This document shows positions 39,583 to 56,966 of a stretch of DNA of 58,150 nt, piece after piece (the stretch's first letter is position 1; every line of letters begins with the position of its first letter). The notes under the pieces were generated by a model that saw nothing but the letters and a program-made list of their open reading frames with translations, was not told the DNA's origin and searched no databases. Source of the stretch: an uncultured Coriobacteriia bacterium (lineage in GTDB: Bacteria; Actinomycetota; Coriobacteriia; Anaerosomatales; PALSA-660). Location of the stretch: contig CAIKZH010000003.1 in the NCBI GenBank assembly GCA_903831865.1, positions 1 to 58,150 on the forward strand, in the 5' to 3' direction. The position numbers and the translations under genes are program-made.

Positions 39583-40770
39583 CTAGGCGCCGCTCGCCGC
39601 CTCTTTGCGCAGCTCAGCGCGTGCAACGGCGCGAGCCTCGGCCAGCTTCGCGACTGCATCCGCCTGCATGCCGGGCAGCAGGTGTCCATACACACTCAGG
39701 GTGAACCCCGCCGATGAGTGACCGAGCCTCTCCTGCACGACCTTCGCCGGCGCCCCCGTCCTGATGAGCTGGCTGGCGTGTGAGTGCCGCAGATCGTGGA
39801 AGCGCACATGCACGCCGACGTGGCGACAGAAGACGTGGTACGCCTGCGAGAACTTCGAGGGAGGCCAGGGATCGCCGGTGTCTCCGGCGCACACAAGGTG
39901 GTTCTCGTGCCATGCCTCCCCCAGCGCCAACCGGCGCTCCTTCTGCCGACGTCGATGCGCTGCCAGCTCTTTGAGCGTGTCGGCATCCAGCGGCAAGGCC
40001 CTCCTGCTCGCGGCCGACTTCGGCTGCCTAAACACGAGCCCGGTGCTGGGCTCCTGAAGCGTCCGACTCACGGTGAGCACGCCGGCCTTGGTGTCGAGAT
40101 CCGACCACCGAAGACCCAGGACCTCTCCACGCCGCAGTCCCGCGTTGGCAGCGAGCAGCACTGCCGCATAGAGGCTCAGGTGCCCGTCTTCCTTGGCCGA
40201 GGCGAGGAGGCGCTCGGTGGCCACCTCATCGATCGCCTTCATCTCGATATGCCGCGCTCTCGGAGCGTCCAGGCGATCACAGGGGTTGACCACGAGGATG
40301 CCGACGCGCACCGCGCGGCCCAGAGCCGCCCGCAACACACGGTGATGAGAGAGCACGGTGCGAGCCGATAGTCCTCCCTCACCCTTGGCCCGGCCACTGG
40401 TGAGCTCCTCGGTGTAGTAGCGCTGGATCCGGGTGGGCGTGAGCTGGTTCAGGCGCACGGAACCGAGCGCCGGGACGAGCCGCTTGTCCACGATCTGCCG
40501 GTAGCCGTCCAGGGTGTAGGGCGCCACGCTGGGTGCGGCGTAGTCCTTCATCCATGTGGCGAGCCACTCGCCCACCGTCATCCGCGACGGCTCGGCGTAG
40601 GAGCCGGTGTCGAGCCCGTGCAGCAGCGCGGTGAGCGCGGACTGCGCCTCACGCTTGGTGACCGCGTGCACCGTGTGGTAGTCGAAGAGCTGCCGCCCCG
40701 CCTCGTCGCGACCCCGAAAGATCCGGGCCTGCCAGGTGTCGGGCGACTTGCGGCGCAGCAGCCCTCTCAT
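39583..40770 (-). CDS. int: Tyrosine integrase of the second element
   Basis: WQARIFRG, GLRRGEVLGLRWSD, PKSAASRR, RFHDLRHSHAS, ERLGHSS..FTLSVYGH. Confidence 0.93.
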   Translation of the reverse strand: MRGLLRRKSPDTWQARIFRGRDEAGRQLFDYHTVHAVTKREAQSALTALLHGLDTGSYAEPSRMTVGEWLATWMKDYAAPSVAPYTLDGYRQIVDKRLVPALGSVRLNQLTPTRIQRYYTEELTSGRAKGEGGLSARTVLSHHRVLRAALGRAVRVGILVVNPCDRLDAPRARHIEMKAIDEVATERLLASAKEDGHLSLYAAVLLAANAGLRRGEVLGLRWSDLDTKAGVLTVSRTLQEPSTGLVFRQPKSAASRRALPLDADTLKELAAHRRRQKERRLALGEAWHENHLVCAGDTGDPWPPSKFSQAYHVFCRHVGVHVRFHDLRHSHASQLIRTGAPAKVVQERLGHSSAGFTLSVYGHLLPGMQADAVAKLAEARAVARAELRKEAASGA

Positions 40771-41663
40771 GACGTGGCGCCCGCTCCCTCCGAGTTGCCC
40801 GCGTCCTTCTGGCCCCTGCGGTAGATGCGCTGACGACATCTCTCGCTGCACCAGTCCCGACTCGCTCTCGCCCCCGTCGCGTCCCAGGGAAGCCCGCAGC
40901 CCTCGCAGGTGCGGTAGTCGCGGTTGCCGTCGATCGCGAGCGCGAGCTGCAACCACATCGCACCCAGAAGCGAACCGACCCGATAGGTCAGGCGCAGCCC
41001 CGCGCCGTAGGACTTGTTCGTGGCAGCGAGAGCGGGCGTGACATCCGCGTGCTTGAGGCCCTGGTTCACCTCGCTTGCCAGCATCGCCTGCACGATCTCG
41101 CGGTCGCTGCTGCTGGCGTCCACGATCAGTAGGCAGGAGTCCATGAGCTCGCCCTTCCAGCACTGCGGCGGGCCATTGGGATAGATGCCGAGCTCATCTC
41201 CCACGCGACGTGTCTCCCACATGCGTTCGATCAGCTCTGAGGGATTGCCGCCTCGCAGCTCGTCCCACATCTCGATGGCGAGCGCCACGCTCTCGCGCGC
41301 CTCGCCCCAGTCATCCTCGTCTCCCGCGTAGCCCTCAGGCAGGCCGCGCGCGGTCTTTGAGATCCTGTCGGGCAGAGGGTCGAGACTCCCATAGGCGCGC
41401 GCGAAGTCCGCGAACGCCTCGGGGGTGTCCTCGATCGCCGCGAAGATCCGGAACAGCGCCGGCTCATCTTTGAGCGGCGCGTAGGACTCGCCCTCGACGC
41501 CCACGAGCGCGACGGAGTCGCCGGCCGGAACAGCAACCTTGCCGTGCTGCGAGGCCCCGTGGTGAAGCGTCTTCCACTCCGCTTCCTGCAGCCGATGCCA
41601 CCGGAATGAGACCAGCTCCGCGATCGCCGGTTCCTGTCGCGCAAGTGTCACAGTATTGCTCAC
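40767..41663 (-). CDS. CGNR zinc-finger regulator-like protein
   Basis: SLLGAMWLQLA...CEGCG...DWCSERCRQRIYR. Confidence 0.7.
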   Translation of the reverse strand: MSNTVTLARQEPAIAELVSFRWHRLQEAEWKTLHHGASQHGKVAVPAGDSVALVGVEGESYAPLKDEPALFRIFAAIEDTPEAFADFARAYGSLDPLPDRISKTARGLPEGYAGDEDDWGEARESVALAIEMWDELRGGNPSELIERMWETRRVGDELGIYPNGPPQCWKGELMDSCLLIVDASSSDREIVQAMLASEVNQGLKHADVTPALAATNKSYGAGLRLTYRVGSLLGAMWLQLALAIDGNRDYRTCEGCGLPWDATGARASRDWCSERCRQRIYRRGQKDAGNSEGAGATS

Positions 41664-41962: not shown

Positions 41963-42179
41963 CGCACCGAAGCTCGAGGATCTGCCTGACGTGATCCCCG
42001 TAAAGACGGTAGCCGCCTTCCTCGGGTGCGCGGAGAACACCTGCTACGCCGCGATACGGGCCGGCGCGCTGCCGGCCGTGAGACTCGGCCGTCGGCTGCT
42101 CGTGCCGAAGGCGAGCCTGATGCGCTTCCTTCACGGCACAACGCACACCGAGTCCACGATCGACACACAAGGCCGATGA
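41949..42179 (+). CDS. Excisionase/AlpA-like HTH_17 protein
   Basis: LPDVIPVKTVAAFLG...YAAIRAGALPAVRLGRRLLVPK. Confidence 0.85.
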   Translation: MTTSSAPKLEDLPDVIPVKTVAAFLGCAENTCYAAIRAGALPAVRLGRRLLVPKASLMRFLHGTTHTESTIDTQGR

Positions 42180-42186
42180 CGCGGCC

Positions 42187-43020
42187 ATGAAGCTCTCGGA
42201 CCGCATGCTTCGAGCCGACGTGTTCACCGACGGTCGCCTGATCCGCGTCTCGCCGGGTGCGCGGCTGCTGGCCATGGTGCTCGATCCGGTTGCTGAGGCC
42301 ACGGGAGTGGTTCGCCGGGACCCCGACGAGATCCGCAGCAGCGCGGCGCTGTTCCTGGCTGACGAGGAGGGCATGCCCCCAACCGCGGAGCAGATCGAGA
42401 AGTGGGTCGAGGAGCTCGTGGCCCGTGGCTGGGCGCTGGCCTATGAAGTCGGGTCCATGCGACTGCTCTACCTGCGGGGATTCGGCGCCCGTCAGAAGGG
42501 CGCCAACGTCTGCATAGGAGTGAGCCAGACCACCGGGGAGATCGAGCAACATCTGCCGACGCCGCCGTGCGTGACACTCGTCCCCCACCATGAGAAGACG
42601 AGGGACAAAGCGGGACACGAGGTGGAGCTGCGGCTTCGCAAGATGCTGCCCCGCCACTGCCAGGACGCGGGTGCCTGCCCGTGTGAGAGGTTCACCAACC
42701 CTTCGCCTACCCACCCCGAACAAGTAAGTAGAGGTAATGGGATTGAACTTGACCTGAGGGCATTTGAAATCCAACCAGATGAAGATGTGGATGGTCATCT
42801 CAGTGAAGGGGAGCGCGAGGGGGAGCTCGACGCGGAGCTTGCGAGACTCTCGGCCGAGTTCGGTCCCGAGATCGCGACGCAGGCGCTCTTCAAGGAACAG
42901 CTCACCTCGAGGAAGTGCGACCCTCCCAGAGCTGTGAGCGCAGCCATGGTTCGAGTGCGATGTGAGGCGCTGGTGCAGCAGGACATAGAAGCAAGGGCGC
43001 ACGGAGAAGGCTTCGGGTGA
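42187..43020 (+). CDS. Phage-type replication initiator-like protein
   Basis: RMLRADVFTD.RL..VSPGARLL...D wHTH-type N-terminus; acidic low-complexity linker. Confidence 0.6.
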   Translation: MKLSDRMLRADVFTDGRLIRVSPGARLLAMVLDPVAEATGVVRRDPDEIRSSAALFLADEEGMPPTAEQIEKWVEELVARGWALAYEVGSMRLLYLRGFGARQKGANVCIGVSQTTGEIEQHLPTPPCVTLVPHHEKTRDKAGHEVELRLRKMLPRHCQDAGACPCERFTNPSPTHPEQVSRGNGIELDLRAFEIQPDEDVDGHLSEGEREGELDAELARLSAEFGPEIATQALFKEQLTSRKCDPPRAVSAAMVRVRCEALVQQDIEARAHGEGFG

Positions 43021-43208
43021 GCGCGTCGGGCTGCGGTCGCCGGCTCAAGGGGCACCTCTTCCCCGACGGGGCGCGGCGGGAGTGCGATCACGTCGTCGCG
43101 CTCTCGGATGGCGGGTCGAACGCCGGGGAGAACCTGCGCTGCCGTTGCCTGGCCTGCCACTATCCCAAAACCGCGAAGGATCGCGGGGTCCGGGGGCAGG
43201 ACAGGTGA
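43017..43208 (+). CDS. Minimal HNH endonuclease, homologous to the prophage HNH
   Basis: CGRRLKGHLFPDG..RECDHVVALSDGGSN..ENLRCRCLACH. Confidence 0.75.
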   Translation: MSASGCGRRLKGHLFPDGARRECDHVVALSDGGSNAGENLRCRCLACHYPKTAKDRGVRGQDR

Positions 43209-43439
43209 GACTCGTTGACGGCGGAGACTGTGAGGCCCATGGTCCGGACATCACCGGCCCCCTGGGGCCGCCGACCTTCTCGTCCGCCGCACGCCGCCGC
43301 GGGCACGCAGGCGCCTCACGAAGCGAGCAGTCGTATCATTTGCTTGCACCGAGTGCTTGTGACCTGCCTCGCGCAGGTCCGCGCGATCCTTGCTAGGCGT
43401 CGTGGGCCGACTTCCTTTCCGGATGCCTGGGGGTATCGG

Positions 43440-44936
43440 ATGGACATGAGATCTGAGCGTCGGGCGCTCGACAAGCTGTACAAGCGCCGAGACCGGTATG
43501 ACATTCCCGATTGGCAGCGCGACGAAGTCTGGTCGGTCGACAAGAAGCGTCGACTCATAGACAGCATCCTTCGCGGCTGGAAGCTGCCGAAGTTCTACTT
43601 CCAGAAGACCCACGACAACCCCGATGAGTTCGACGTCGTTGACGGCCAGCAACGCCTGACAGCGATTTGGGAGTTCCTTGATGGGGAGTTCTCGCTGTCG
43701 GCGGAATCGGCCACTGAGTTCGGCGGCGAGCGTTATGAAGACCTCCAGGAGGACGTCTCGGACGCGTTCGACGACTACGAGATCGAGTACGACGAGATTA
43801 CCAACGCGACGGACGAAGACGTCAAGGAGTTCTTCCAGAGACTCCAGGAGGGTCTGCCCCTGACGAGCAGCGAGAAGCTCAACTCGGTCCACAGCAAACT
43901 CCGCGACTTCTGCGCCAAGGCCGCGAAGGATCCGTTCTTCTCGAAGACGACCGTGATTGCGGACAAGCGCTATGCACACTTTGACATCGTCGCCAAAGTC
44001 ACCGCCCTCGAGATCGAGGGGCTGGACGCGGGTCTTCGCTATGAGGACGTCCGAAAGGTCTTCATCGACAACGCGTCGTTCTCGTCGCAGTCTGCGGCTG
44101 CCAAGCGAGTCAGCGGAGCGATCAAGTTCCTGCGGGAGAACTTCCCTGAATCGTTCAAGCCCTTCCGCAATCGCACGATTGTCCAATCGGTCATCACACT
44201 TGTCTGCCACCTCCGTGAGGCGGGGCTCACGGCAGAGCAAGGCGAGATGCTGAGGGACTTCATCGTGTTCTTCCTGGGTGAGCTCAACAGGCAGGTGGAA
44301 CTCGGACAGAAGGCGACCGATTCGGACTTCTTGGACTTCCAGCGCACGGTCAATGCGAACGTGAAGACTGGTGCCAGAACCCGGCAGACGATCCTGCTGC
44401 GCAAGCTCTTCCAGAGGCATCCTCAGTTCTTCAGCGCCCTGAGCCAGTCGGCAGATCTTGCGGCGGGAGTCAATGACAGCATCGGGAAGCTTGCGACCTC
44501 TGTGCGAGAGTTGGTCGCCGCAAGCAACGACCGATATGCAGCGCGAAATGGCGGCGACCTATTCAAGCCTACGAACAAGACGGCGAGCTCCCTAGCTGGC
44601 CTTGGGGTGCCGGTCACGTCGGTCGAGGAGTACAAGGCATTCATCGACAACCTGTACTTCGTCTTCTGGGAGGGGCCCGGCCAGCGCCTCGATGGCCAGG
44701 TCCCATCTTCGTTCGTCGATGTGAACGACCTGAGGACGATGCTCCAGCACGACGTCGATCACGGCAAGGGCGCCAAGGCTGCCGCAAAGCGCAGACATCT
44801 GGGATCCGTCTTCGCACGGTATGCAGGCGTGTCGTCGCCTGATGCGATAGACCCTGCGGCCTTTCCCGTCGTGCAGGCGAATGTACTTGGCGCCCTCGAG
44901 TCGGACTTGAGCGCGCTTGCCAAGTCGCTCATTTAG
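43440..44936 (+). CDS. DUF262 (GmrSD/ParB-like) protein with HEPN-like C-terminus
   Basis: PDWQRDEVW, LIDSILRG, VVDGQQRLT, FQRLQ.G.PL; C-terminal RTMLQH (Rx4H). Confidence 0.8.
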   Translation: MDMRSERRALDKLYKRRDRYDIPDWQRDEVWSVDKKRRLIDSILRGWKLPKFYFQKTHDNPDEFDVVDGQQRLTAIWEFLDGEFSLSAESATEFGGERYEDLQEDVSDAFDDYEIEYDEITNATDEDVKEFFQRLQEGLPLTSSEKLNSVHSKLRDFCAKAAKDPFFSKTTVIADKRYAHFDIVAKVTALEIEGLDAGLRYEDVRKVFIDNASFSSQSAAAKRVSGAIKFLRENFPESFKPFRNRTIVQSVITLVCHLREAGLTAEQGEMLRDFIVFFLGELNRQVELGQKATDSDFLDFQRTVNANVKTGARTRQTILLRKLFQRHPQFFSALSQSADLAAGVNDSIGKLATSVRELVAASNDRYAARNGGDLFKPTNKTASSLAGLGVPVTSVEEYKAFIDNLYFVFWEGPGQRLDGQVPSSFVDVNDLRTMLQHDVDHGKGAKAAAKRRHLGSVFARYAGVSSPDAIDPAAFPVVQANVLGALESDLSALAKSLI

Positions 44937-45011
44937 CAGTGTGCGACCACAGGTAGATCTCAGGACGCTCGACGCCTAGCGCATACTGGTGGCCACGGGC
45001 ACGAGGCTTGA

Positions 45012-45941
45012 GTGCAACACACAGGGAGACAGGGGGGCGAAGACTTGGCGAGCACCGCGGGCCTACTGCGGCAGGCGCTCGATGCCGTCACGGACGGACT
45101 TGATAGTCTCATTCGGACCCTGCCCATAAAGGACAATCGCTGGCATGAGCCGGGCATCGTCTATGTCGCCCCGGACTACGCCTGGGGAGACATCGCAGCC
45201 GGCGAGCGCGCCCAACAGCTATCACTCAAGCGCTCCTACGACCTTGTGTCCGAGCGTCTGCGGCTGCTAGTGGCTGGAGCGCCTGAGGAACTAACCCGCC
45301 AGCTTGCGGATGCGGACGTCGCCTTTCGAGTGTGGGTTGAGCTCGACTACTCGAACTGGCACTTGTCGCCCAGCTCTGATTCAAATGTAGAAGCGCTCCG
45401 AGCGGATGCGGCCGCAATCTCAAGAATTCTGGACATCGTTGAACGCCTCGGTGCCGGAGAGACGTTCGCGATTCCGGACACGAATAGCCTGCTGAGGGCG
45501 CCTGACCCTGTCGCCTACCGTGACGTACTTGGGCAGAACGAGTTCACCTTCACTCTCCTGCCGACGGTGCTCGGCGAACTTGATCGGTTGAAGATCGAAC
45601 ACAGGAATCCCGACGTGCGCGACAAGGCCAAAGCCGTGATTGGCCGCATCAAGGGATGGCGCAATCAGGGGACGCTGTCTGCTGGCGTGAAGGTGGATCA
45701 GTCGATTACCGTCCGCGCCCTGCACGCGGAGCCGGACATGAACGACACGCTGTCGTGGCTCGACCCGGCCGTCGACGATGATCGGATCATCGCGGGCGTT
45801 CTCGCAATCCAGGCGGAGCATCCCGGGGCGCGAGCCGTCCTCATAACCGGCGACATCAACCTGATGAACAAGTCGGATGCCGCGCTAGTGGAGACCGCAG
45901 AGGCTCCCCAACGGGCGCGTCCAGCGGACGGCGCAGGCTAG
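45012..45941 (+). CDS. PIN-domain ribonuclease
   Basis: IPDTNSLL, TVLGELDRLK, DDDRII, LITGDINL. Confidence 0.8.
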   Translation: MQHTGRQGGEDLASTAGLLRQALDAVTDGLDSLIRTLPIKDNRWHEPGIVYVAPDYAWGDIAAGERAQQLSLKRSYDLVSERLRLLVAGAPEELTRQLADADVAFRVWVELDYSNWHLSPSSDSNVEALRADAAAISRILDIVERLGAGETFAIPDTNSLLRAPDPVAYRDVLGQNEFTFTLLPTVLGELDRLKIEHRNPDVRDKAKAVIGRIKGWRNQGTLSAGVKVDQSITVRALHAEPDMNDTLSWLDPAVDDDRIIAGVLAIQAEHPGARAVLITGDINLMNKSDAALVETAEAPQRARPADGAG

Positions 45942-45995
45942 GCGAGCGACGAAGAGAAGCGTCGCGGCCCGCCGCAGACGCGCTGACCGTTGGGC
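45906..45995 (+). repeat. attC-like integron cassette site 1
   Basis: CCCAAC...GCGCGTC // GACGCGC...GTTGGGC, overlapping the PIN gene end. Confidence 0.7.
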
Positions 45996-46197
45996 GGAAT
46001 CGCTGGCCCGTCGTCGGCGTTTCGCAACGGGTCGTTGCAGAAGGAGGTGCGCGGTCTTGCAGGCGGCCAGGCGACTGATCGTTCGCGCACTCAACGGGCT
46101 CTGCGGCTTGGTCGACGCGGTCGCTTACCGGCCGGTCGTGGTTCGCTTCGGCAGGCCACTCCCGCACCGCTGGAACTGCAACTTGGCGCGACTCTCG

Positions 46198-46518
46198 ATG
46201 CGGCTGGATGAGCGCTGGGGTACCGGATACTGGAACGGAGACGGTCCGCAGCCGGGGGAGCCGTGCGAGGCGTGCGGCCGGAGGCCGGCGCTGTTCTTCA
46301 TCGGCGGCTACGCGGACGATCCCGACTTGGAAGAGCCCGTTGAGGTGGGCGACGACGACTACTTCTTCGCTCACCGGGAGGTCGCCCTCTGCGGCTGGTG
46401 CAAGCTCCCCCCACACGACGCCCCCTTCGGAAGTGAGGCGGAGTTGCAGCAGGCGCTTCGGGCGGCGGCTGAGAGGTCGACGCGTTGGGGATGGCGCTGG
46501 AGGCCGACTTGGGAGTAG
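46198..46518 (+). CDS. Small Zn-ribbon hypothetical protein (cassette)
   Basis: CEACG...LCGWC; lies between two attC-like sites. Confidence 0.45.
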   Translation: MRLDERWGTGYWNGDGPQPGEPCEACGRRPALFFIGGYADDPDLEEPVEVGDDDYFFAHREVALCGWCKLPPHDAPFGSEAELQQALRAAAERSTRWGWRWRPTWE

Positions 46519-46547
46519 CTGGGCTCGGCACAGTCTGCGGGAGATCC

Positions 46548-46634
46548 GCCCAACAACCGCATCCTTAGCGGACGGCGTAAGCTGGAGCAAGAAGGAAGTG
46601 CTGTGGTCCGCCGCAGATGCAGACCACGTTGGGC
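46548..46634 (+). repeat. attC-like integron cassette site 2
   Basis: GCCCAAC...GCATC..GCGGAC // GTCCGC..GATGC...GTTGGGC. Confidence 0.75.
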
Positions 46635-46653
46635 GTGCCAAAGGGGGGAGCTG

Positions 46654-46929
46654 GTGGACGATTCCAAGTATGAGCGTCGCGTGACGCTGCTCTGCCCGAC
46701 CTGCGGATCAGACCAGTTCGCTTTCGACGATGACGATGAATCCGCTCCAGTGACATGCTCGAACTGCGGTCGTCAGACCACGCGTGAGGCCCTCATCGAG
46801 GAGAACTCCGAAAACATCGAGTCTCACGTTGCCGAGATCGGCGAAGAGGTCGTCGCAGACGCAGCCAAGGACCTGAACAAGTCGCTTCGCGATGCCTTTC
46901 GCGGCAGCAAGAACATCCGGCTTGAGTGA
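46654..46929 (+). CDS. ECs_2282-like putative zinc-binding protein
   Basis: LLCPTCGSDQF...VTCSNCG...LIEENSENI. Confidence 0.7.
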   Translation: MDDSKYERRVTLLCPTCGSDQFAFDDDDESAPVTCSNCGRQTTREALIEENSENIESHVAEIGEEVVADAAKDLNKSLRDAFRGSKNIRLE

Positions 46930-47402
46930 TGGCTCTCTCCTTCACCATCAGCGACGTGCTTGCCGCCCTCGCACTGGTTCTCTCATTGGTTGCGACCGTT
47001 GCGACCGCCCGCTTCAACGCGCGGCAGAAGTCCCTAATCGAGAGTCAGGAGCTGCTGAACCGGCGGCTATTGGCTCGTGAGCAAAGCGAGGCTGCAGCGA
47101 GCGAGCAGGCTGACTTGTCGGCCAGCCTTGTGAAAGTCGGGCAGAGCAACTGGCGCTTGAAGATCTACAACCGGGGCAAGGCGGCGGCGCGCAACGTTAC
47201 GATCACCACGGCGGAAGATGACGACTTGCTGATCCAGGAGGATGTGGTTTCGAAGTTTCCGCTGGAGCTTCTGGAGCCGGCGCACGGGGTGGACCTGATC
47301 TCACTCATCCATTTGGGCTCCAAGAGCAAGCACGAGGTCACCCTTGGCTGGAGCGACGACTTCAGGGACTCCAACACAAAGACCGTGTACGTGACGATCT
47401 AG
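46926..47402 (+). CDS. N-terminally membrane-anchored hypothetical protein
   Basis: Hydrophobic N-terminus, coiled coil, Ig-like LKIYNRGKAAARNV. Confidence 0.65.
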   Translation: MMALSFTISDVLAALALVLSLVATVATARFNARQKSLIESQELLNRRLLAREQSEAAASEQADLSASLVKVGQSNWRLKIYNRGKAAARNVTITTAEDDDLLIQEDVVSKFPLELLEPAHGVDLISLIHLGSKSKHEVTLGWSDDFRDSNTKTVYVTI

Positions 47403-47485
47403 CGTAGCAGTGAACCTCTGGTTCAAGCTCGAAGAGCAACACGTGGGACCTGCCTCGTCACGACTCCAATCCAGAGAGCGGCACA

Positions 47486-47535
47486 GGGGTACGGGGGGTG
47501 GAATCTCTAGCGCCCTCTTGCGCCGACCCTGCCTG
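47486..47535 (+). repeat. Partial copy of the cos-like motif
   Basis: GGGGTACGGGGGGTGGAATCTCTAGC...CCGACCCTGCCTG. Confidence 0.6.
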
Positions 47536-47624
47536 GCCGCTCTTGTGGCTAGCGCCCATGTGCAGGCTCTGGCAATGAATCGCGCGGACGCCGTTACGCA
47601 AGCCGGTGACAGAGCCTCGGGCGA

Positions 47625-47897
47625 CTAGTAGTCGAGCGCGTGCCTGCCGGTCGGACTGTTCGAGCAGTTGCCACCTACCTGGCTGGCGTCGGCCCCACAA
47701 AAGACACATCGGCCCGGATTGCCCCCGATGATGTGCCTCTGGGTTGGACTACTGGGGCACGTGCCGCCTACCTGACTGGCGTCAACCCCGCAGAAGCGGC
47801 ACTTTGACGGGTCGCTAATCACATGCCTCCCGGTCGGACTGTTCGAGCAGTTGCCGCCCACCTGACTGTCATCGATGCCGCAATAGACGCATGCCAT
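47625..47897 (-). CDS. Cys/His-rich three-repeat protein
   Basis: 3x C-x-(Y/F)-CG-x-D-x-SQVGG-x-C-xx-SPT-x-RH; AAGGAGG RBS. Confidence 0.7.
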   Translation of the reverse strand: MACVYCGIDDSQVGGNCSNSPTGRHVISDPSKCRFCGVDASQVGGTCPSSPTQRHIIGGNPGRCVFCGADASQVGGNCSNSPTGRHALDY

Positions 47898-47977
47898 GAT
47901 TGCCCTCCTTGCTTGCCGTTGCTGACGAATGCTCGCGTACCAGGATTACCTTGAGCAGTGCCAACGGACTCGACCAG

Positions 47978-49627
47978 TCACTTTGAGAGCAGGAATGCAT
48001 CGAGCTCCTTGACCGTGAGTTCGAGTCCGTTTGCGCGAGCGGATTCGTCCGCGGAGGCGAACGCGAGGCAGTGCTCCCAGTAGGACTTGTAAGCGCGCGC
48101 CTTGTCGTACTTGAACAAGGGGGCCGCCAGCGCCTTGGACCGGAAGACCTTCAGCACCGCTTCTGAGTAGGAGTCGTAGATCGGCACGACGGGCTTGTGG
48201 AAGTGCAGGTACTTGGAGACGAACGACTTGGGCGCGTCGCCGGTCTGGCCTTTGGCCAGCGAGTCGCGAATGAGCGTGGTCAGCTGGCCATGGACCGCGA
48301 CGAGAGTCTCGAGATCCGCCACCCGGAGATCGTCCCCGTCCGGCAGACTGGCGATGAGTCCGTCGACCATCGCATGGTTGTGGGCAAGAATCCGCGCGAC
48401 CTCGCGTATCGCGGAACCGGGTCCTGATCGATCCTCCGCAGGGACCAGCGCGTCTATTCGCGTAGCGTAGCCGCGGCCGATGATGGCCACCTTGGCCACC
48501 ACGCCGGCCGTGTCATCGTGCTTGGGATGTCGGCTGCACAACCCGTAGAGTTCATCGTCAAGCACTCCCCAGATCGCCTTCTGCTCGGCAATCACCTCCT
48601 GGCAACCGGTCCAGAACTCCGAATCAGGCATGTTCGTGCTCCTTGTGTCGTTGGCGCGGGTCATCGCGAGCTTGAGATGCGCTGGTGCGGGAGTCGTCGG
48701 CGTCTCGGCGGATGCGACTGCGGTCGGCGTGCTGCGCTCTGCCGCGTCCGACCGCCTGGCCACACTCTCCAGGCATGCGACCCGAGCAGACAGCCGAGGA
48801 ACGGTCTTCGGACCAAGAGGTGTTGCGCCCGTGAAGAAGCCGGAGACCTCACCCCAGATCTCGACCACATCCTCCTCGTAGAACGAGACCTCGTTCGGGA
48901 AGTCGGCAATCACGTCGTCGAAGCCGCCACCTTGCACGATTGTGTTGAGTTGGACCCACGTGCTCCCGTCATCCTCCTCGTGGATGCCGGTCACCTTCCC
49001 GACGACATGGATCCGTGTGCCGGCCAGCCGCTTCGCGTCCTTCTTCAGAACGCGGTACTCGATGTCGCGACAACTCGCGACGAACTCGTCGTCGGTCTCG
49101 ACTCGCTCGACAACGCGGGTATACGAGAGCGACTTGCCGATCGGGTCCGTCACCTCGACTAGCAGGTCATTGGCGCCGATGGCGAGGGGCGCCTCAATGG
49201 AGAAGCCGCCGTCGGAGCCGACGGTCACGGCCTGCTCGCCGATCGTCACACTGGAGGCAGGAGGCGCCTTGCCCACCAGCATCACATCGGCCGCGCTGAC
49301 CTTCTCGAAGGGATCGGGGGCGGTGATCTGCACACTGGGCCGGATCCCGAACAACCGTGCTGCGTCCGCTGCCGGCGCGGCGAACGGACAGAGGAGCTGT
49401 CGGTCGGCGGACTCCATCGGGCACTCCGCCCGCTCGTGCCAGGCGTACCGGATGATGTTCTTGTCACTCACGGCGGATGGCGAGTCGATGTGGCCTAGAG
49501 CCCACTCATGCGTCGGCCACAACTCAAGATCCGCTAGCCACGCCCTCTCAGGGCAGAAGCACTTGTCGGCCGAGCGATACAGGCAGCCCGTCTGGGTCTG
49601 GTTGGGCCATGCGTCCTCGAAGCCCAT
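47978..49627 (-). CDS. Multidomain hypothetical protein (Ig-like, OB-like, C-terminal SKYLHF/PIYDS helical domain)
   Basis: VQITAP...GANDLLVEVTD Ig-like segment; SFVSKYLHFHKPVVPIYDS; internal AAGGAG-ATG at 48631. Confidence 0.55.
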   Translation of the reverse strand: MGFEDAWPNQTQTGCLYRSADKCFCPERAWLADLELWPTHEWALGHIDSPSAVSDKNIIRYAWHERAECPMESADRQLLCPFAAPAADAARLFGIRPSVQITAPDPFEKVSAADVMLVGKAPPASSVTIGEQAVTVGSDGGFSIEAPLAIGANDLLVEVTDPIGKSLSYTRVVERVETDDEFVASCRDIEYRVLKKDAKRLAGTRIHVVGKVTGIHEEDDGSTWVQLNTIVQGGGFDDVIADFPNEVSFYEEDVVEIWGEVSGFFTGATPLGPKTVPRLSARVACLESVARRSDAAERSTPTAVASAETPTTPAPAHLKLAMTRANDTRSTNMPDSEFWTGCQEVIAEQKAIWGVLDDELYGLCSRHPKHDDTAGVVAKVAIIGRGYATRIDALVPAEDRSGPGSAIREVARILAHNHAMVDGLIASLPDGDDLRVADLETLVAVHGQLTTLIRDSLAKGQTGDAPKSFVSKYLHFHKPVVPIYDSYSEAVLKVFRSKALAAPLFKYDKARAYKSYWEHCLAFASADESARANGLELTVKELDAFLLSK

Positions 49628-49929
49628 CAGGCGTCCCGGCTCGGCCTGGCGAACGGGCACGCCTCTTGGGTCGCCCACTTCACGTAGTGCGGGCACTCCC
49701 CGCGATCCCAGTAATACAGAGACGAGTACTCCGTGTCGTGCTGCTCCGATGACGCCGGTACGCCGGGCGGACGGCGCGATCCGAGCGGACTCCACTGCGG
49801 ATGATGACACCGCCGGTCCTCGAGATAGGCGCAGTAGTGGTAGCGCGAGCCTTGACCGCTGTCGCGGTCAAGGAGACCGAGCACTCCGTCAACCGCCGTC
49901 TTCTTCGCGACCATTGATCCCCCCGGCAC
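49627..49929 (-). CDS. Small Cys-rich hypothetical protein
   Basis: Coupled to the downstream gene; several Cys/His residues. Confidence 0.35.
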   Translation of the reverse strand: MPGGSMVAKKTAVDGVLGLLDRDSGQGSRYHYCAYLEDRRCHHPQWSPLGSRRPPGVPASSEQHDTEYSSLYYWDRGECPHYVKWATQEACPFARPSRDA

Positions 49930-49974
49930 GCCGGCCTCGCGTCTTGGCGACAGTATCCGCCAACCCGAGGAGAA

Positions 49975-50068
49975 GGTAAGGGGGCTGCAATCTCTAGCGG
50001 CCTGCCGCGCCGACCCTGCCTGCCAGGCGCCCTTCTCTGCGCCCGAATCTGGGCGTTTCGCGGCAACG
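49975..50068 (+). repeat. Near-complete copy of the prophage cos-like region
   Basis: 50010-50068 matches the reverse complement of 21861-21919 at 57/59 nt. Confidence 0.85.
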
Positions 50069-50183
50069 ATAACTTCTGGCGCGTGTTACGAAACTCGAGA
50101 CTCAGCGCAATCAGATGTGACGAGCCGCAACGACATGGGACGAAGCCGGGGGTCCGGGGTTGCCTGATGCGCCTGTCTCTGAC

Positions 50184-50208
50184 TATCGTGTATCGTCGAT
50201 ATGCGATA
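50184..50208 (+). promoter_or_regulatory. ArsR-type operator palindrome
   Basis: TATCG-TGTATCGTCGATATG-CGATA directly upstream of the arsR-like gene. Confidence 0.6.
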
Positions 50209-50222
50209 GGAGGTCGGAGGCC

Positions 50223-50525
50223 GTGACATACGACGAGATGGCGTGTTTCGCGCGGGCGCTCGCCCACCCCGCGCGGATGAGGATCATCGGGCTGCTCTCC
50301 TACGAGAAGGAGTGCCTGGGCCCGCAGGTCTTCGGCGAGCTGGAGCTTGCGCAGTCCACCGTCTCGGAGCACCTCAGAGTGCTGAAGGAGGCGGGAGTCA
50401 TCGACTCCCGTCCGGTCGGCGCGACCACCGCCTACCGCCTTCTCCCCTGCGTGCTCGAGCGCTACGCCGTGGCCGTCGCCGACATCGTCGAGAGCGCGGA
50501 CACCCACGGCCCGGGCAGGGCGTAG
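50223..50525 (+). CDS. ArsR/SmtB family regulator
   Basis: ALAHPARMRII, LAQSTVSEHLRVLKEAG. Confidence 0.88.
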   Translation: MTYDEMACFARALAHPARMRIIGLLSYEKECLGPQVFGELELAQSTVSEHLRVLKEAGVIDSRPVGATTAYRLLPCVLERYAVAVADIVESADTHGPGRA

Positions 50526-50560
50526 GGCGCCGTGTCACACAGGGCTGCTAGTCTCGGATC

Positions 50561-50941
50561 ATGAGCGGAATCCCACAAGCACCTCGCTGCGCCTGGATCG
50601 GCTGCGACAACCCACTTCCACCGCCGGCCAGGCGCGGTCGGGCCCGCATCTACTGCTCGGACTCCTGCAGGATGGCGGCCGCGCGGCATCGAAGGATCTC
50701 CGCGCCATACAGGCCGGACATCGCATGGAGCCCGGACGTCGATCCCGCCGAGCTCACGCTGCCCCCGGAGGCCGATTACGATACGCAGGTCGCCCGCGCG
50801 GTGCTCGAGGCCGCGATGATCTCATCGGCCTTCGCGCGCCTGGCCGCCTACGCGCGCCCCGAGCTCGCCGCACCCTCCGAGCGGATGTGCCGCGTCATCC
50901 GCAAGGCGCTCGACAAGGAGTTCCCCGGATGGAACAGATGA
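50561..50941 (+). CDS. Zinc-finger protein, paralogue of prophage gene 21439-21807
   Basis: CAWIGCDNPLPPPARRGRARIYCSDSCR...DTQVAR...FARLA..ARP.LAA...FPG. Confidence 0.75.
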   Translation: MSGIPQAPRCAWIGCDNPLPPPARRGRARIYCSDSCRMAAARHRRISAPYRPDIAWSPDVDPAELTLPPEADYDTQVARAVLEAAMISSAFARLAAYARPELAAPSERMCRVIRKALDKEFPGWNR

Positions 50942-51465
50942 GCGCCGCCGAGCACGTGTCACGCGACGCGACCCGGCAGAATGGCCTTCAGGCCGGTGCA
51001 TTCAGCGCATGGACGCGCTGGACGGACCGGGCCTCTCTGCCGGGCTTGCGGTTCCCCGGCGTCTACGTGATCGCAGCCCCCGAAGTCGACATCACGGCTG
51101 AGCCGTTCTCGTGGCGGGCGGACATCGTCTACGTGGGCATGTCGAACTCGAGGGGCGGAGTCGGCTCGCGGCTCGGGCAGTTCGAGAGCACTCTGCAGGG
51201 CCGCATGGGTCATGGCGGTGCCCAGAGGCTCTACCGCAAGCACGGCGACTGCTCCGGTCTGCCCGCGGGGCTCTTCGTCGCAGTCCGCACCTTCGAGTGC
51301 AGCGTCACATCCGACGACCCGGACGATCTCCGCGCCATGGGGTGCGTCGCGAAGTGCGAGTACGACTGCTTCGCGGAGTTCGCGGAGGCATTCGGCCGAC
51401 TGCCGGAGTTCAACGACAAGGCGCGATCGCCCAAGTACCTGCCCTGGCCACCACCGAAGTCGTGA
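50938..51465 (+). CDS. GIY-YIG-like nuclease
   Basis: PGVYVIA...IVYVGMS...SRL.QF...E...GRLPEFN. Confidence 0.6.
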   Translation: MSAAEHVSRDATRQNGLQAGAFSAWTRWTDRASLPGLRFPGVYVIAAPEVDITAEPFSWRADIVYVGMSNSRGGVGSRLGQFESTLQGRMGHGGAQRLYRKHGDCSGLPAGLFVAVRTFECSVTSDDPDDLRAMGCVAKCEYDCFAEFAEAFGRLPEFNDKARSPKYLPWPPPKS

Positions 51466-51590
51466 GCGAGCTGTCGCTTCGCCTCCGGCTCCGTGGGCGC
51501 GCATGCGGCGCCCTTGTCACTCCGGTCGGCTAGACTCGGCATACGAACGATGCTCGCGCCTGAGACTCAGGCTCGAGGAGGTCGGGCACT

Positions 51591-52211
51591 GTGACACTCC
51601 GAGACCGCATCTTGGCTGCTACTGCTGAGGCTCCCGGCCTGACGGACCGTGAGTTGGCCGACAGACTGCTCGGGCCGTCATCTGCTCCTCAGGGAGTGAA
51701 TCAGGCGGCTCGTGCGCTCGCAGCGGGCGGCGCCTTGAGTCGCTTCCCTCGCGCTGATGGCAAGATCGGCAACTTCCTTCCGGGCGTCCAACCGCAGGCT
51801 CGAAGCAGTGCCTCGGGCACGACCGGCGCAGCCCGCAGCTCCTCGGGCATGAGCGAAGACGAGGTGAAGCGAGCGGTCGCAGATTGGCTGGAAGCCGCCG
51901 GATGGTCGGTCGTGGTCCGCTGGGGGCGTGAGCGCGGCATCGACATCGAGGCCAGGCGTGGCGGCGAGCGCTGGGTCATCGAGGCGAAGGGCTGCGGCTC
52001 GCTGGGCGCGATGCGCGTGAACTACTTCCTGTCCATGCTCGGCGAGACGCTGCAGCGGATGGATGATCCCGGGGCTCACCACAGCATCGCCCTTCCCGAC
52101 ATGCCTCAGTTCCGGGGCCTGTGGTCCCGCTTGCCGCAGCTGGCGAAGACACGCACAGGGATCTCCGCCATCTTCGTCGGAGAAGGTGGCGCGGTTGTCC
52201 ACCTCGACTAG
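51591..52211 (+). CDS. wHTH plus PD-(D/E)XK nuclease
   Basis: LTDRELADRL; SEDEVK...GIDIEA...VIEAKG. Confidence 0.75.
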   Translation: MTLRDRILAATAEAPGLTDRELADRLLGPSSAPQGVNQAARALAAGGALSRFPRADGKIGNFLPGVQPQARSSASGTTGAARSSSGMSEDEVKRAVADWLEAAGWSVVVRWGRERGIDIEARRGGERWVIEAKGCGSLGAMRVNYFLSMLGETLQRMDDPGAHHSIALPDMPQFRGLWSRLPQLAKTRTGISAIFVGEGGAVVHLD

Positions 52212-52265
52212 GGTCGGGTCTGCGATCCCGACTTGGGCGTCTGTTCACAATCCGCGAGGCTGAGG

Positions 52266-52532
52266 ATGTTCTCGAACACGGAAGCGTTCGCGCTGCTGGC
52301 CGTCATGGGCGCGATTGACGAGCAGAGCCGCCGCGTGCACGCCCAGGCGGTCGTGCACGACCTCGGGCTAGACCCTCGCCTCGAACCGTTCATCCCCTTG
52401 CCGCCATCTCGGAAGCGGAAGCTTCGTGTCTACGAGTCGGTGCTCGGTTCGTACCGTGGGTGGTCCGCGCTCCCAGAACCGGCACGGACGCGCACTATCG
52501 AACAACTCGCCCGGGCGCTCAGAGGAGGATGA
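52266..52532 (+). CDS. Small hypothetical protein
   Basis: ORF with a GAGG RBS; no motif recognised. Confidence 0.4.
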   Translation: MFSNTEAFALLAVMGAIDEQSRRVHAQAVVHDLGLDPRLEPFIPLPPSRKRKLRVYESVLGSYRGWSALPEPARTRTIEQLARALRGG

Positions 52533-52588
52533 GGTAGAGCAGTCGCCGACGACGCTGCGATCAGCCCTTCTACCGGGTCGGGGGGCGC

Positions 52589-52810
52589 ACGAGCGAGTAC
52601 GATCGGATTCCGCAAGCGAGGCGAACCGGAAGCGAGCGCCTCCGCGATGGCGACCGCGAACTCCCCCTCGACCTTCTCGGCTTCTGGCGCTGGAGCGCCT
52701 CAGCAGACTACGGCGGCTTCGACGGGGAGCTGGCTCCCATCAACCGCCAACTTGCGGGCTTGAAGCGCAGGCACGAGGAACTTGACACTGTCCTCACGGG
52801 CAAGCTGTGA
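52589..52810 (+). pseudogene. Probable gene remnant (LLGFWRWSAS family), start codon lost
   Basis: Open frame from ACG: RRTGSERL..G..LPLDLLGFWRWSAS, then unrelated sequence; sits before attC-like site 3. Confidence 0.35.
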
Positions 52811-52861
52811 CACCAGCGGGGCGACTCCTCGGCCGTTCTGATCAGCGGCCTTGTCGGGGCA

Positions 52862-52942
52862 GCCGAACAAGCGCGTCCTGACGCGTCCTGCGAGGCGCAC
52901 AATGGTGGGGGATCCGCGCAGATCACGCGCAACCCGTTCGGC
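52862..52942 (+). repeat. attC-like integron cassette site 3
   Basis: GCCGAAC..GCGCGT.CTG.CGCG // CGCGCAG...ACGCGC...GTTCGGC. Confidence 0.7.
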
Positions 52943-53052
52943 GGAACCGGCGGTCCCGACCGGCGCCAAGTACCGAGGACTCTCCGAAGGGGCAGACTCC
53001 ACCGTTTCGGGCGTTCCCGACCAAGACCCTTTGCGAGACGCGGAGGCCACCA

Positions 53053-54027
53053 GTGGAATCCATGTTGTTTGTGCGCGCCGGCAACGGCAACGAGCTCGTC
53101 GATGACTTCGTCCGGTCCGGGCTCGTCGCGGTCGGCTGGTCGAAGTTCGGAGACCTATCGTCCGTCAAGTCGGCTGCAGACCTGGAGCGCATGCTCCTTC
53201 GGACCTATCCCGATGGCGTGAACGCATCCGGCCGCCCGGCGAAGCTCTACGCCGAGATAGTCCACTTCGCCCTCGAGGCGAAGCCAGGCGACCTTGTCGT
53301 CACCGCCGATGGCAGGCGTCGCCGGCTGATCGTTGGCATGATCGACGGCCCGTACGAGTTCCGGCCCGAGCAGCCGCTGAGTTCCGGCGGGGAGCCGTAT
53401 CGGCACACCCTGCCGGTCTCCTGGACGTTCGCTGTCGCGAGAGACAAGGAAGGCCCGCAATCGTTCCCCGAGACTCGCCAGAGGAGGAAGACGGCCTTCT
53501 GGTTGGGAAGCGACACCGCATCCGCGATCATGAGCGCGCCGAGGATGTCTCTCGCTGCGCATCCGGAGGCGCCCCCGCGCAAGTCCGCTGCTCCCTACCC
53601 GCAGCCCATGGCGGAAGCGCCAGTTGCCAACGGAGCCGATGCTCTGCAAGCGTGGCTGGACCAGAACGAGCGGCTCGCCGAAGTTCTGCCTTCGGAAGAG
53701 CTGGCGGCAAGGGCCGCGGCAGCGAATCCAAATCCGCGAAGGGTCGAGTCAAACGGCGCCACCTTCGTGCGCGATTCGTTCGTGGCGGCGTTCGCGAAAC
53801 AACTTGCCCGCGGCGTGTGCGACCTGTGCGCACAGCCGGCTCCATTCCACTCGATGAACAGGCGACCCTATCTCGAGTCCCATCACGTGCAGTGGCTGTC
53901 TCGTGACGGCCGCGACGCGCTCGACAACGCCGTGGCTCTCTGCCCCAACTGCCACCGCAGGATGCACGTTCGCGACGAGCAGGCGGACATCGAGAAGCTG
54001 CAGAGGAAGATCGCCGCTCGTCCATGA
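53053..54027 (+). CDS. McrA-like HNH endonuclease with Mrr-associated-type N-terminal domain
   Basis: VRAG...VAVGW...GDLVV; CDLC...YLESHHVQWLS..G.D..DNAVALCPNCHRRMH. Confidence 0.8.
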   Translation: MESMLFVRAGNGNELVDDFVRSGLVAVGWSKFGDLSSVKSAADLERMLLRTYPDGVNASGRPAKLYAEIVHFALEAKPGDLVVTADGRRRRLIVGMIDGPYEFRPEQPLSSGGEPYRHTLPVSWTFAVARDKEGPQSFPETRQRRKTAFWLGSDTASAIMSAPRMSLAAHPEAPPRKSAAPYPQPMAEAPVANGADALQAWLDQNERLAEVLPSEELAARAAAANPNPRRVESNGATFVRDSFVAAFAKQLARGVCDLCAQPAPFHSMNRRPYLESHHVQWLSRDGRDALDNAVALCPNCHRRMHVRDEQADIEKLQRKIAARP

Positions 54028-54030
54028 GCG

Positions 54031-54110
54031 GAGGTGCTCGGGAGAGGCACGTGCCCAGAATGATTCAGCGCCGCGCAGCTGCTCGCGGACCTGAAGGCGC
54101 CGGGGTGAGG
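54031..54110 (+). pseudogene. Remnant of the 3' end of the prophage peptidase gene
   Basis: 54071-54100 is identical to the reverse complement of 28578-28607. Confidence 0.75.
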
Positions 54111-54270
54111 CGTGGACAGGCTGGGCGACGTCACAAGCTCGCTCGACCCCTGGATCACCTGGGGTGGCAAGTGACCAGCGTAGACTGCCTGTGACAACAA
54201 GCCGCGGAGAGCCTGGGAGCACGGTCAGACAGGGCAGCGTTCGGCAAGTACGAACCGACGGGAGGCTCTC

Positions 54271-55818: not shown

Positions 55819-55821
55819 CTC

Positions 55822-56739
55822 ATGTCGACAATTCGTGCCGTTCCCGAGCCGTCCGTCTACCACATCACAGCCGAGGACTGGCGCGTTGATGAGAAGCGGG
55901 ACGCCTTCGAGGCGCGGTTCCTCGACATACTCGGCGGTTTGCGCGTTGGGTCAGGTCGCCTTGCATGGTCCGACCGGATTGAAGCGCTCCTTTGGGGAGT
56001 TGACTCGGGGCCAGCCTGGTTCAGGGACAAGGCCGCCTGGAACCAGTTCTACAGCAAGCGGGTCGCGAAGCAGCTGCGCCCGCTTCTGGACAGCGTGCCT
56101 ACGGACGACACGGAAGGGCTTGCGGAGATCGCACCCGACCCGACGGGCCGCCCGGACGAAGAGCCCTACAAGGAGGAGTTCCTGCGGATCTGTGCCAGCT
56201 ACTGCCTGTTGGACGAGGACTTCGTTCTGGCTCTCGGCTTCGACGCGGAGCGCCCGACAAGCGTCCTTGTGCGCCAGCCTGGCTGCGCGGACCGCCAGGT
56301 GCAGACGGTGTCAGAGTACGACGACATTCTCGCGCTGGTGGAAGTGACTGACGATCTGTGGCCCCAGTCGGCCGACGATGGGGAGACGCTGCGGCGCGCG
56401 CTGGGGATCTGGCATCGGCGGCACGCATTCTCGGCCGACGGCTTCATCTACGAGTTCAGCTTCGCTGGGGACTTTCTGCGAGCTCTTTCAAAGGAACGCG
56501 ATGACCGCGCGGGCGTGCTGGATTCCATGGTGCGGCGGTTGACGCAGACGCGACGAGCTGCAGAGGGAGACCGCGCCATCCAAGACGAGGACGCTTCGTG
56601 GGCCGGCCAGACGGTTCGACGCTTCCGTGCCCGAGGGCCGCGCCGCATCCACTACGAGTGCCCGAGTGCCAGAGCGATACGCTTCATCGACTACTACCCG
56701 GAGGGCAAGCACGACGTCGGCCTTCGTGCCAAGGACTGA
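55822..56739 (+). CDS. ATPase partner with putative RelE/ParE-like C-terminal domain
   Basis: FSFAGDFLRAL...RRFRARGPRRIHY...IRFIDYYPEGKHD. Confidence 0.55.
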   Translation: MSTIRAVPEPSVYHITAEDWRVDEKRDAFEARFLDILGGLRVGSGRLAWSDRIEALLWGVDSGPAWFRDKAAWNQFYSKRVAKQLRPLLDSVPTDDTEGLAEIAPDPTGRPDEEPYKEEFLRICASYCLLDEDFVLALGFDAERPTSVLVRQPGCADRQVQTVSEYDDILALVEVTDDLWPQSADDGETLRRALGIWHRRHAFSADGFIYEFSFAGDFLRALSKERDDRAGVLDSMVRRLTQTRRAAEGDRAIQDEDASWAGQTVRRFRARGPRRIHYECPSARAIRFIDYYPEGKHDVGLRAKD

Positions 56740-56966
56740 CACACGACGGCCCTGCTGAGCGACTCAAGGCAGCAGCGTAGAGGAGAGTGTGAAGCTCGCC
56801 CGAGAAGAGGGTTGGTCCCGCAGGGGGTTGACCCTGCTTGGACCCCCACGCATGTCTCGCGACAACGCTCTGGGCAGGCGTATCTTGGCGTATGTGCTCC
56901 AGAGACGCGGTCCGAAGTGGCTTCAGGCGAATCCGCTAGTCATTGTTCGACAGAACCGGGGGAACC

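Follow-up and report, generated by a model that had tools for sequence, protein, structure and literature searches.

The window analysed here is one contig (C3, 58,150 nt) of a 2.16-Mb metagenome-assembled genome (MAG; G000) that is 96% complete and divided into 192 contigs. Beside a prophage, it carries a phage-derived island in which an integrase, a replication initiator, a truncated HNH endonuclease, cargo genes, a cos-like repeat and a small terminase (terS)-like fragment follow each other in this order (Table 1). Among these genes lie three imperfect palindromes, attC1, attC2 and attC3, which an earlier note, made from the letters of the window, had taken for integron recombination sites delimiting cargo in an island devoid of an integron integrase (IntI). 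All three are present at exactly the coordinates it gave. They are genuine attC sites, belonging to the family used by the organism's own integrons, because the genome encodes integron integrases, sites of this family stand in arrays, a model of the family recovers the attC sites of a class 1 integron, and the geometry of the sites matches.

Table 1. Features of the island and of the genes around its attC sites, with positions in the window (ORF, open reading frame)
Feature	Position	Strand	Details
Phage-type tyrosine integrase	39583..41163	-	PF00589, E 4e-24; TIGR02249 30.6 bits vs cutoff 265
Replication-initiator-like gene	42187..43020	+	phrog_1408, E 5.4e-8
Truncated phage HNH endonuclease, 63 aa	43017..43208	+	PF01844, E 8.5e-8
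DUF262/GmrSD_N, NsnA-like gene	43215..44936	+	PF03235, E 4.3e-23; PADLOC NsnA, E 2.1e-34
"Degenerate right half"	43370..43398	+	10/10 bases as in the attC3 subfamily, then GCTAGGC; no statistical support
PIN-domain gene, 309 aa	45012..45941	+	PF13638 PIN_4, E 9e-13; 3' end enters attC1
attC1	45906..45995	+	R'' CCCCAAC, R' GTTGGGC; R1 41.9 bits, E 1.4e-8
Cassette unit, 639 bp	45990..46628	+	TT of the attC1 R' box to G of the attC2 R' box; contains ORF 46057-46518
ORF153	46057-46518	+	153 aa, cysteine-rich, no family
attC2	46548..46634	+	R'' GCCCAAC, R' GTTGGGC; R1 60 bits, E 2.5e-13
Zn-ribbon ORF	46654-46929	+	start most likely GTG 46654, after a G-rich ribosome-binding-like run
phrog_6723-family ORF	46926-47402	+	phrog_6723, E 2.4e-41
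Partial cos-region-like repeat	47488..47540	+	blastn self-matches, match to C38
Full cos-region-like repeat	49975..50094	+	also upstream of the prophage small terminase gene (21861-21954, minus), on C156 and on C38
Small-terminase-like N-terminal fragment, 126 aa	50561..50941	+	paralogue of prophage terS 20882-21760 (blastn, blastp)
attC3	52862..52942	+	R'' GCCGAAC, R' GTTCGGC; R1 46.2 bits, E 1.1e-9, 3-position deletion
HNH type IV restriction-like gene	53053-54027	+	downstream of attC3
NsnB/AAA_15 ATPase gene	54271-55818	+	downstream of the HNH type IV restriction-like gene

The covariance model R1 derives from an alignment (A2) of 19 attC sites of this genome, all of them outside the window. 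Search of the entire 58 kb with R1 (filters off, matches kept to E ≤ 10) reports 17 matches, of which three stand out: they cover the full model, lie on the + strand and coincide with the three palindromes. The fourth-ranked match has E = 0.57. According to PMC5027507, the outer boxes of attC sites follow the consensus RYYYAAC (R'') and GTTRRRY (R'). The boxes of attC2 agree with it exactly, the first base of attC1 is a C and not a purine, and attC3 deviates once in each box, the two deviations being complementary to each other. Rfam, run at gathering thresholds on the whole window, does not report any family, and a gapless inverted-repeat finder overlooks all three sites because of their bulges. 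A fourth, degenerate right half that the earlier note placed at 43392, ahead of the DUF262 gene, fared less well: its letters are present, and it appears neither among the R1 matches (E ≤ 10) nor among those of a right-half hidden Markov model (HMM; E ≤ 100). As the two half-site HMMs (left and right 32 nt) are underpowered, the true sites 1 and 3 scoring E > 3 with them, this half-site is dropped rather than disproved.

PMC5027507 also describes the bottom-strand geometry of attC sites, in which two bases of the R''-L'' arm, G16 and T23/24, are extrahelical and separated by a 6-bp stem. In attC1, the unpaired top-strand C and A at model positions 16 and 23 correspond to bottom-strand G16 and T23, and attC2 exhibits the same unpaired bases. 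This arrangement is found in attC1 and attC2, but not in attC3, which has a 3-bp stem and looks like a structurally decayed site. The single-strand DNA folding that the note had proposed as a check distinguishes the sites in another way. Site 1 is clearly more stable than its shuffles (z of -3.4 on the + strand and -4.1 on the - strand), but the values of site 2 (-2.2/-2.3) and site 3 (-1.0/-2.0) are modest, so that folding energy alone is not decisive.

The structure of the family can be read from A2, in which 95.0% of the cells are paired, as compared with 78.1 +/- 1.3% in shuffles (0 out of 500 being as high), a fraction that drops to 27.6-38.8% when the partners are slid by 1-3 columns. 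The compensatory changes noticed earlier between sites 1 and 2 are real, and across the family 13 of the 21 pairs show changes on both sides. When confronted with a 13.7-kb class 1 integron, R1 recovers all three of its attC sites (after dfrA12, a small ORF and aadA2) on the cassette strand and, for dfrA12 and aadA2, where the annotated genes end (18-34 bits, E 3.7e-7 to 4.7e-3), and reports no other match below E 1.3. These class 1 sites, that of aadA2 among them, align with R1 with an unpaired C at position 16 and an unpaired A at position 23. Unlike published attC sites, the family of this lineage has a shorter and partly paired central spacer: the R''-L'' arm contributes 2 nt and the L'-R' arm 5 nt (A2 columns 8-15 and 85-95), where PMC5027507 gives "usually five to six" nt per arm, and three extra covarying pairs (columns 10-12 with 88-90) replace bases that are unpaired in the class 1 sites. 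This unusual spacer may lower the sensitivity of standard attC models, and may explain missed detections in the lineage.

Both integrases of the window are of the phage type, as the note had stated. Integron integrases were searched for with TIGR02249 (curated cutoff 265 bits), and the window is devoid of any: the best DNA match (28.4 bits, 39670-39822) falls inside the phage integrase of the island. The note's suggestion that an IntI could be supplied in trans is borne out by the rest of the genome, which contains two intact intI genes (488 and 461 bits), the cutoff being exceeded in 0 of 14 control genomes. The IntI of contig C172 aligns over its full length to Vibrio cholerae VchIntIA (PDB 2A3V, a structure with attC DNA; E 5.8e-94). 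Directly downstream of this intI and on the same strand are 8 attC sites, at intervals of ~0.5-1.3 kb that hold one or two ORFs each. The complete integron (C172:1423-9019, L009; intI 8039-9019, minus strand) ends at an IS110-like transposase (16-1194); its cassettes comprise a HigB/HigA pair, a CopG-antitoxin-like ORF and several lipoprotein- or membrane-like orphans, and the ORF that follows intI looks frameshifted. The second gene belongs to a phage-like fragment (C89:1-12179, L013) that encodes an integrase (8453-9565), a RusA-like protein, a DnaB-like helicase and an HNH endonuclease (2247-2939). There, the intact intI (1179-2228) lies within ~100 nt after the HNH gene and an attC (700-783) ~400 nt past intI, with the contig end ~700 nt further. 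C172 and C89 each carry a complete integron, and the window, without intI or similarity to the regions that follow intI on these two contigs, does not contain one. The truncated HNH gene of the window is 85% identical at the nucleotide level to the 3' end of the C89 HNH gene, and this similarity stops at the HNH stop codon.

Within the genome, the 10-base core common to sites 1 and 2 recurs in closely similar AAC...GTT palindromes on other contigs, and an HMM search reveals regular arrays of such sites; besides C172, the array contigs include C86, C58, C170 and C59. R1 reports at least 25 matches on 9 contigs, all of them spaced like cassettes or close to mobile genes; the count is a lower bound, since 150 of the 1686 first-look candidates were scored. 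Six of the matches did not serve to train the model, namely the three of the window, a single C156 site and two C29 sites. By blastn, attC2 is 80-84% identical to the attC sites beside or downstream of both intI genes, on C89 and C172, C59 being matched as well, and attC3 belongs to a second subfamily, which carries the loop motif GGCGCACAATGG and is frequent in the arrays of C172 and C86. As hairpins rich in GC that are found where genes end, two of them with a modest folding z (-2.2 for site 2, -1.0 for the + strand of site 3), the sites could also be repetitive extragenic palindromic (REP)-like repeats or transcription terminators that have nothing to do with integrons. This is extremely improbable. 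The family is confined to the places just described, mostly intI-adjacent arrays with a spacing of ~0.4-1.2 kb, and this presence in arrays and integrase-less clusters on 9 contigs is the opposite of a REP-like scatter. The sites have AAC/GTT boxes and unpaired positions 16 and 23 and align with class 1 attC sites, 0 of the 2 terminator-like sites of the region are located at an attC, and no Rfam family was matched.

Regarding the genes, the three sites are located at gene boundaries, as had been claimed, all on the + strand and co-oriented with the adjacent genes. The terminal loop of attC1 contains the TAG stop codon (45939-45941) of the PIN ORF, and the site ends 62 nt before ORF153. A gap of 553 nt separates attC1 from attC2, which starts 30 nt past the stop codon of ORF153 and ends 20 nt before the GTG of the Zn-ribbon ORF. 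Located 6.2 kb from attC2, attC3 is placed between ORF 52233-52532 and the HNH type IV restriction-like gene. If we assume the conserved G|TT cut point given in PMC5027507, the R1 matches delimit a single complete cassette. Its ORF153 does not return any Pfam, NCBIfam or PADLOC match, its best Atlas score is 0.87, and among 146 genomes of the order it is found in its own genome only (0 of the 145 others). This unit is a typical orphan cassette, and the sole one strictly bounded by attC sites.

The units on either side are less well defined. Upstream, the DUF262 gene (listed as its longest ORF, the real start being possibly near 43441) and the PIN gene are separated by 75 nt (44937-45011) in which no attC model match is reported, and the pair ends in attC1. 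The PIN gene has distant, domain-level matches in 53 of the 146 genomes, with at most 37% identity. Downstream, the Zn-ribbon and phrog_6723 ORFs represent a phage-type family and not a known defence family. A second copy of this pair on C156 (67% nucleotide identity) is located just past an attC of a different subfamily, and both copies in this genome lack an attC of their own and run into the cos-region-like repeat. Two relatives in the order have the pair as a cassette, as indicated by the attC sites around it: in G103 an attC follows 14 nt beyond its stop codon, and in G099 an attC precedes it while an attC-like site with mutated boxes (AAG/GTA) comes after. In this last site (L182, G099:C9, ~3545-3640, minus strand) the triplets are changed in a complementary manner, AAC to AAG and GTT to GTA; possibly the site is inactivated and keeps the cassette from moving.

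The proposal that the island collects defence genes as integron cassettes is thus borne out in part. The NsnA-like DUF262 gene and the PIN gene do form a pair that ends in attC1, but the one bounded unit is the orphan ORF153, the Zn-ribbon and phrog_6723 pair does not belong to a known defence family, and the HNH type IV restriction-like and NsnB-like ATPase genes, which by their sequences are the clearest candidates for defence genes, lie past attC3 and are unbounded downstream, R1 reporting no further attC from there to the contig end. Any defence role of the cassette genes is putative.

The surroundings of the attC sites are phage-derived and satellite-like, in agreement with the note. The island is a candidate for a satellite resembling phage-inducible chromosomal islands (PICIs): besides an integrase and a rep-like gene it contains a truncated HNH gene, a repeat resembling a cos region and a terS-like fragment, and it adjoins a full prophage that carries the same repeat and a terS gene (20882-21760) matching phrog_83, the contig breaking off in an insertion sequence at 58150. 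A satellite-like element and a decayed prophage fit these features equally well.

Taken together, the window is best explained as an attC cluster that has no integron integrase (CALIN), formed by attC1 and attC2, followed by the decayed lone attC3, in a phage-derived, satellite-like island for which IntI is available in trans; we give this reading a probability of about 0.88. According to it, the single-stranded bottom strands of the attC sites would fold into hairpins that serve as substrates of an IntI encoded outside the window in two intact copies. The cluster holds the complete 639-bp cassette, preceded by the DUF262 and PIN unit ending in attC1 and followed by the Zn-ribbon and phrog_6723 unit, whose own attC has been lost. 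The best clue to its origin is that the window cassettes occupy the position held by a complete integron in the sibling element C89. Most likely, a piece of a cassette array sat at the same position in a sibling, intI-bearing phage-like element resembling C89, and intI and attI would subsequently have been lost from the element of the window. IntI acting in trans could still excise or exchange ORF153 through attC1 x attC2 recombination.

Several observations weigh against this reading or parts of it. Each of the sites departs from the family structure: the 6-bp stem between the unpaired bases contains one A-A mismatch in attC1 and an extra 2-nt bulge (TA) in attC2, while attC3 has lost 3 nt from its R''-L'' arm, which leaves 3 nt bulging on the opposite arm. 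Present-day activity of the sites is uncertain as a consequence of these changes. The left boundary of the DUF262 and PIN unit was not detected. No remnant of attI or intI is detectable between the HNH and the first cargo genes, comparison of 43209-45100 with the post-intI regions of C89 returning only chance-level short matches. The adjacency of HNH and intI genes is seen in 0 of 137 other IntI-bearing loci, none of which yields a homologue of the HNH gene, and the idea of a conserved phage type uniting both genes thus comes down to C89. Lastly, that the intI contigs and the window belong to one cell is based on binning in a MAG of 192 contigs, on the shared attC subfamilies and on the HNH similarity.

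The structural changes could mean that the three sites are fossils, that is, true attC sites by descent that are no longer recombined and whose cargo is fixed in the island. The loss of an attC by the Zn-ribbon and phrog_6723 unit points the same way, as do the scores of 42-60 bits, below those of most array sites (19 of the 22 R1 matches outside the window score 54.6-87.9 bits). However, the class 1 attC sites score even lower with R1 (18-34 bits), so score alone is no sign of inactivity; in attC1 the canonical positions 16 and 23 are preserved and the R boxes complementary; and PMC5027507 indicates that attC sites tolerate much variation of sequence and structure, single extrahelical bases being dispensable in some of them. 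Fossil sites are therefore a possibility that we hold at somewhat below even odds. A different route to the same arrangement would be the single insertion of cassettes into an existing phage-derived island by IntI at non-classical sites (attC x attG), yielding a small CALIN and a single attC site lacking an integron integrase (SALIN). Small CALINs (two cassettes in 1362 out of 2961) and SALINs have been proposed to arise via attG (bioRxiv 10.1101/2022.09.11.507474), remnants of intI and attI are absent from the window, attC3 is isolated, 6.2 kb away from attC2, and IntI is available in trans. Nevertheless, the HNH landmark shares 85% identity with its intI-abutting counterpart on C89, and the Zn-ribbon and phrog_6723 pair with the cos-like repeat also follows an attC on C156, so that inheritance of the block fits these shared landmarks better than independent insertions; no empty-site relative showing an insertion junction was found among 41 kin genomes. 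Insertion via attG consequently appears rather unlikely.

A broader and more speculative idea extends the CALIN reading to the order as a whole. Its phage-derived elements would carry an integron platform in an accessory slot between HNH and cos/terS, through which phages and satellites swap cargo by means of IntI and spread integrons. C89 would then be the complete form (HNH, intI and attC), and the window a derivative that has kept the cassettes without intI. We regard this as doubtful. If it were true, phages and satellites would exchange anti-phage genes by IntI and act as vehicles of integrons in a phylum almost devoid of them.

The genome belongs to an order in which integrons are frequent. 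Of 61 genomes of the order, this one included, 37 have an IntI above the cutoff, as do 5 of the 9 other members of the genus. Across an evenly drawn sample of the phylum, it is found in 24 of 401 genomes (22 of 399 without two unpublished ones), concentrated in few families, and in three other families of the same class it is found in 0 of 27. As in C172, arrays in kin genomes are located downstream of intI and share its strand, the other side of intI having none: they comprise 23 attC sites in G010 (G010:C1:1084000-1103000, L159), 20 in G026 (G026:C1:884000-902000, L161) and 12 in G007 (G007:C7:30000-49000, L163). Since the order is rich in integrons, no exotic source of the window sites is needed. 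The closest named relatives of the IntI proteins include six Coriobacteriia MAGs, one Actinomycetota and one Actinomycetes (67-73% identity), intermixed with other phyla at similar identity. A 598-residue RpoB segment is 84-85% identical to three of these Coriobacteriia MAGs, the kin taken as members of the same order showing 79-87%, and R1-type attC sites occur in 5 of 5 named MAGs examined (3 to 27 matches each). On the RpoB identity and the attC sites of the named MAGs, the order appears to group with MAGs labelled Coriobacteriia, and its assignment to Actinomycetota is accepted on this indirect basis.

The premise that integrons are rare in Actinomycetota is indeed reported in the literature. 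PMC9024848 lists no complete integron, one In0 and few CALINs for Actinobacteria in complete RefSeq genomes, and a 2026 permafrost study speaks of their "virtual absence" from Actinomycetota (PMC13323075); a 2021 review mentions Actinobacteriota among the integron-bearing phyla (PMC8618304). For this lineage the premise is nonetheless misleading, with IntI in more than half of the genomes of the order. The literature returned no paper that ties integrons to Coriobacteriia, although the supplementary tables of PMC9024848, PMC13323075 and PMC9892861 may hold such cases. The order thus represents an integron-rich group, with arrays of up to 23 detected attC sites, within a phylum described as nearly without integrons.

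Several known systems can be compared with the window. By the definition of PMC9024848, two co-oriented attC sites that bound a cassette with no intI near form a CALIN; this one, accompanied by a lone attC as in a SALIN, is small, as most CALINs are. It differs from known CALINs by its uncultured Coriobacteriia-like host, its location in a phage-derived island and its last unit devoid of attC, an array fragment and attG insertion being both candidates for its origin. The default clustering distance of IntegronFinder is 4 kb, and attC3, 6.2 kb off, would be counted as a separate lone site. Integrons and CALINs have been described in phage genomes, such as the CALIN of Tetrasphaera jenkinsii phage TJE1 and the integron and CALIN of Shewanella prophage M16-3 (Qi et al. 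2023, PMC9892861). As in the window, attC clusters and sometimes intI are embedded there among phage genes, and one of these phages has an actinobacterial host; the phage attC sites of that study were recombined by IntI1 in assays. In contrast, the window element is satellite-like or a decayed prophage beside a complete prophage; its host genome has matching integrons; and in the sibling element C89, intI comes immediately behind a phage HNH gene. The IntI relatives found in a phage collection (a P1 isolate with class 1 integrons, Shewanella phage M16-3 and two Vibrio phages) are cases of the same study. Among IMG/VR sequences, 18 of the 51 loci with IntI relatives were scanned with R1, which reports four weak matches (at most 31.6 bits) and none on the closest locus, L107.

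Defence systems have also been reported as cassettes of sedentary chromosomal integrons (bioRxiv 10.1101/2024.07.02.601686). The attC-associated DUF262/NsnA-like and PIN genes and the HigB/HigA toxin-antitoxin cassettes of C172 resemble these, except that only part of the putative defence genes of the island are associated with attC and that the bounded cassette has no known function. The layout of C172, C89, G010, G026 and G007, with the array downstream of intI and on the same strand, is that of the published "inverted integrase" type. Phage CALINs and integron-borne defence cassettes have been published before, and the CALIN of the window is in itself an ordinary object. The presence of cassettes and of one intI inside phage-derived elements bears on how cassettes, possibly with defence genes, move between phages, satellites and hosts. 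Furthermore, true attC sites can be recognised from raw sequence alone, as the palindromes picked out by the earlier note illustrate.

Assembled contigs of four public metagenomic runs were compared with positions 42000-54000. Contig pieces without differing letters span attC1 (run X4), attC2 (X2 and X6) and attC3 (X2); X2, X4 and X6 are lake-water, peat and permafrost metagenomes and come from studies other than the one that probably yielded the genome. Other contigs of these three runs match, within 45000-53000, only the attC core and have different flanks, hence this attC subfamily is widely distributed in such habitats. No contig of the four runs contains a junction skipping 45990-46628, which is uninformative on excision since assemblies drop rare forms. 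One junction, from 50476 to 52158 (side 21, one contig), has too little support to be used, and loose contig ends at 51713 and 52294 are not located at GTT junctions. Among the 41 kin genomes, the window's own included, comparison with positions 42000-56800 reports no empty site and no syntenic island; beyond the attC cores it returns only short segments of at most 391 nt with 66-76% identity.

The remaining part of the island contains a 2.4-kb segment enclosed by 48-bp direct repeats (47488-47535 and 49975-50022) that are 85% identical. It encodes a 610-residue protein with a Glucodextran_B-like domain on the minus strand (47978-49810) and comprises ~3 tandem units of ~92 bp (47640-47905). 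Compared with C156 and C38, this segment looks like an insertion into the cos-region-like repeat. The neighbouring prophage (3387-38803) is apparently complete. Its late genes (3387-21807, minus strand) encode endolysin, tail, tape measure, major head, protease, portal, and large and small terminase proteins, and its early genes, among them a ParB-like/methyltransferase gene and a full HNH gene, lie further right together with the second integrase of the window (37553-38803); the region ~22000-28800 has a low third-position GC content and few clear ORFs. At the contig end, an IS3-family transposase (HTH_21 and rve domains, 57177-58150) is 81% identical to C189; this insertion sequence (IS) probably caused the assembly break and hides what follows the island. 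Elsewhere in the genome, contig C29 carries another integrase-less attC pair (C29:27113-32656, L184; sites 29045-29130 and 32572-32656, minus strand), which adjoins genes for an Arr-ms family rifampin ADP-ribosyltransferase-like protein (E 5e-44), an Imm5-like protein and a GNAT acetyltransferase, with an IS30-type helix-turn-helix gene next to them.

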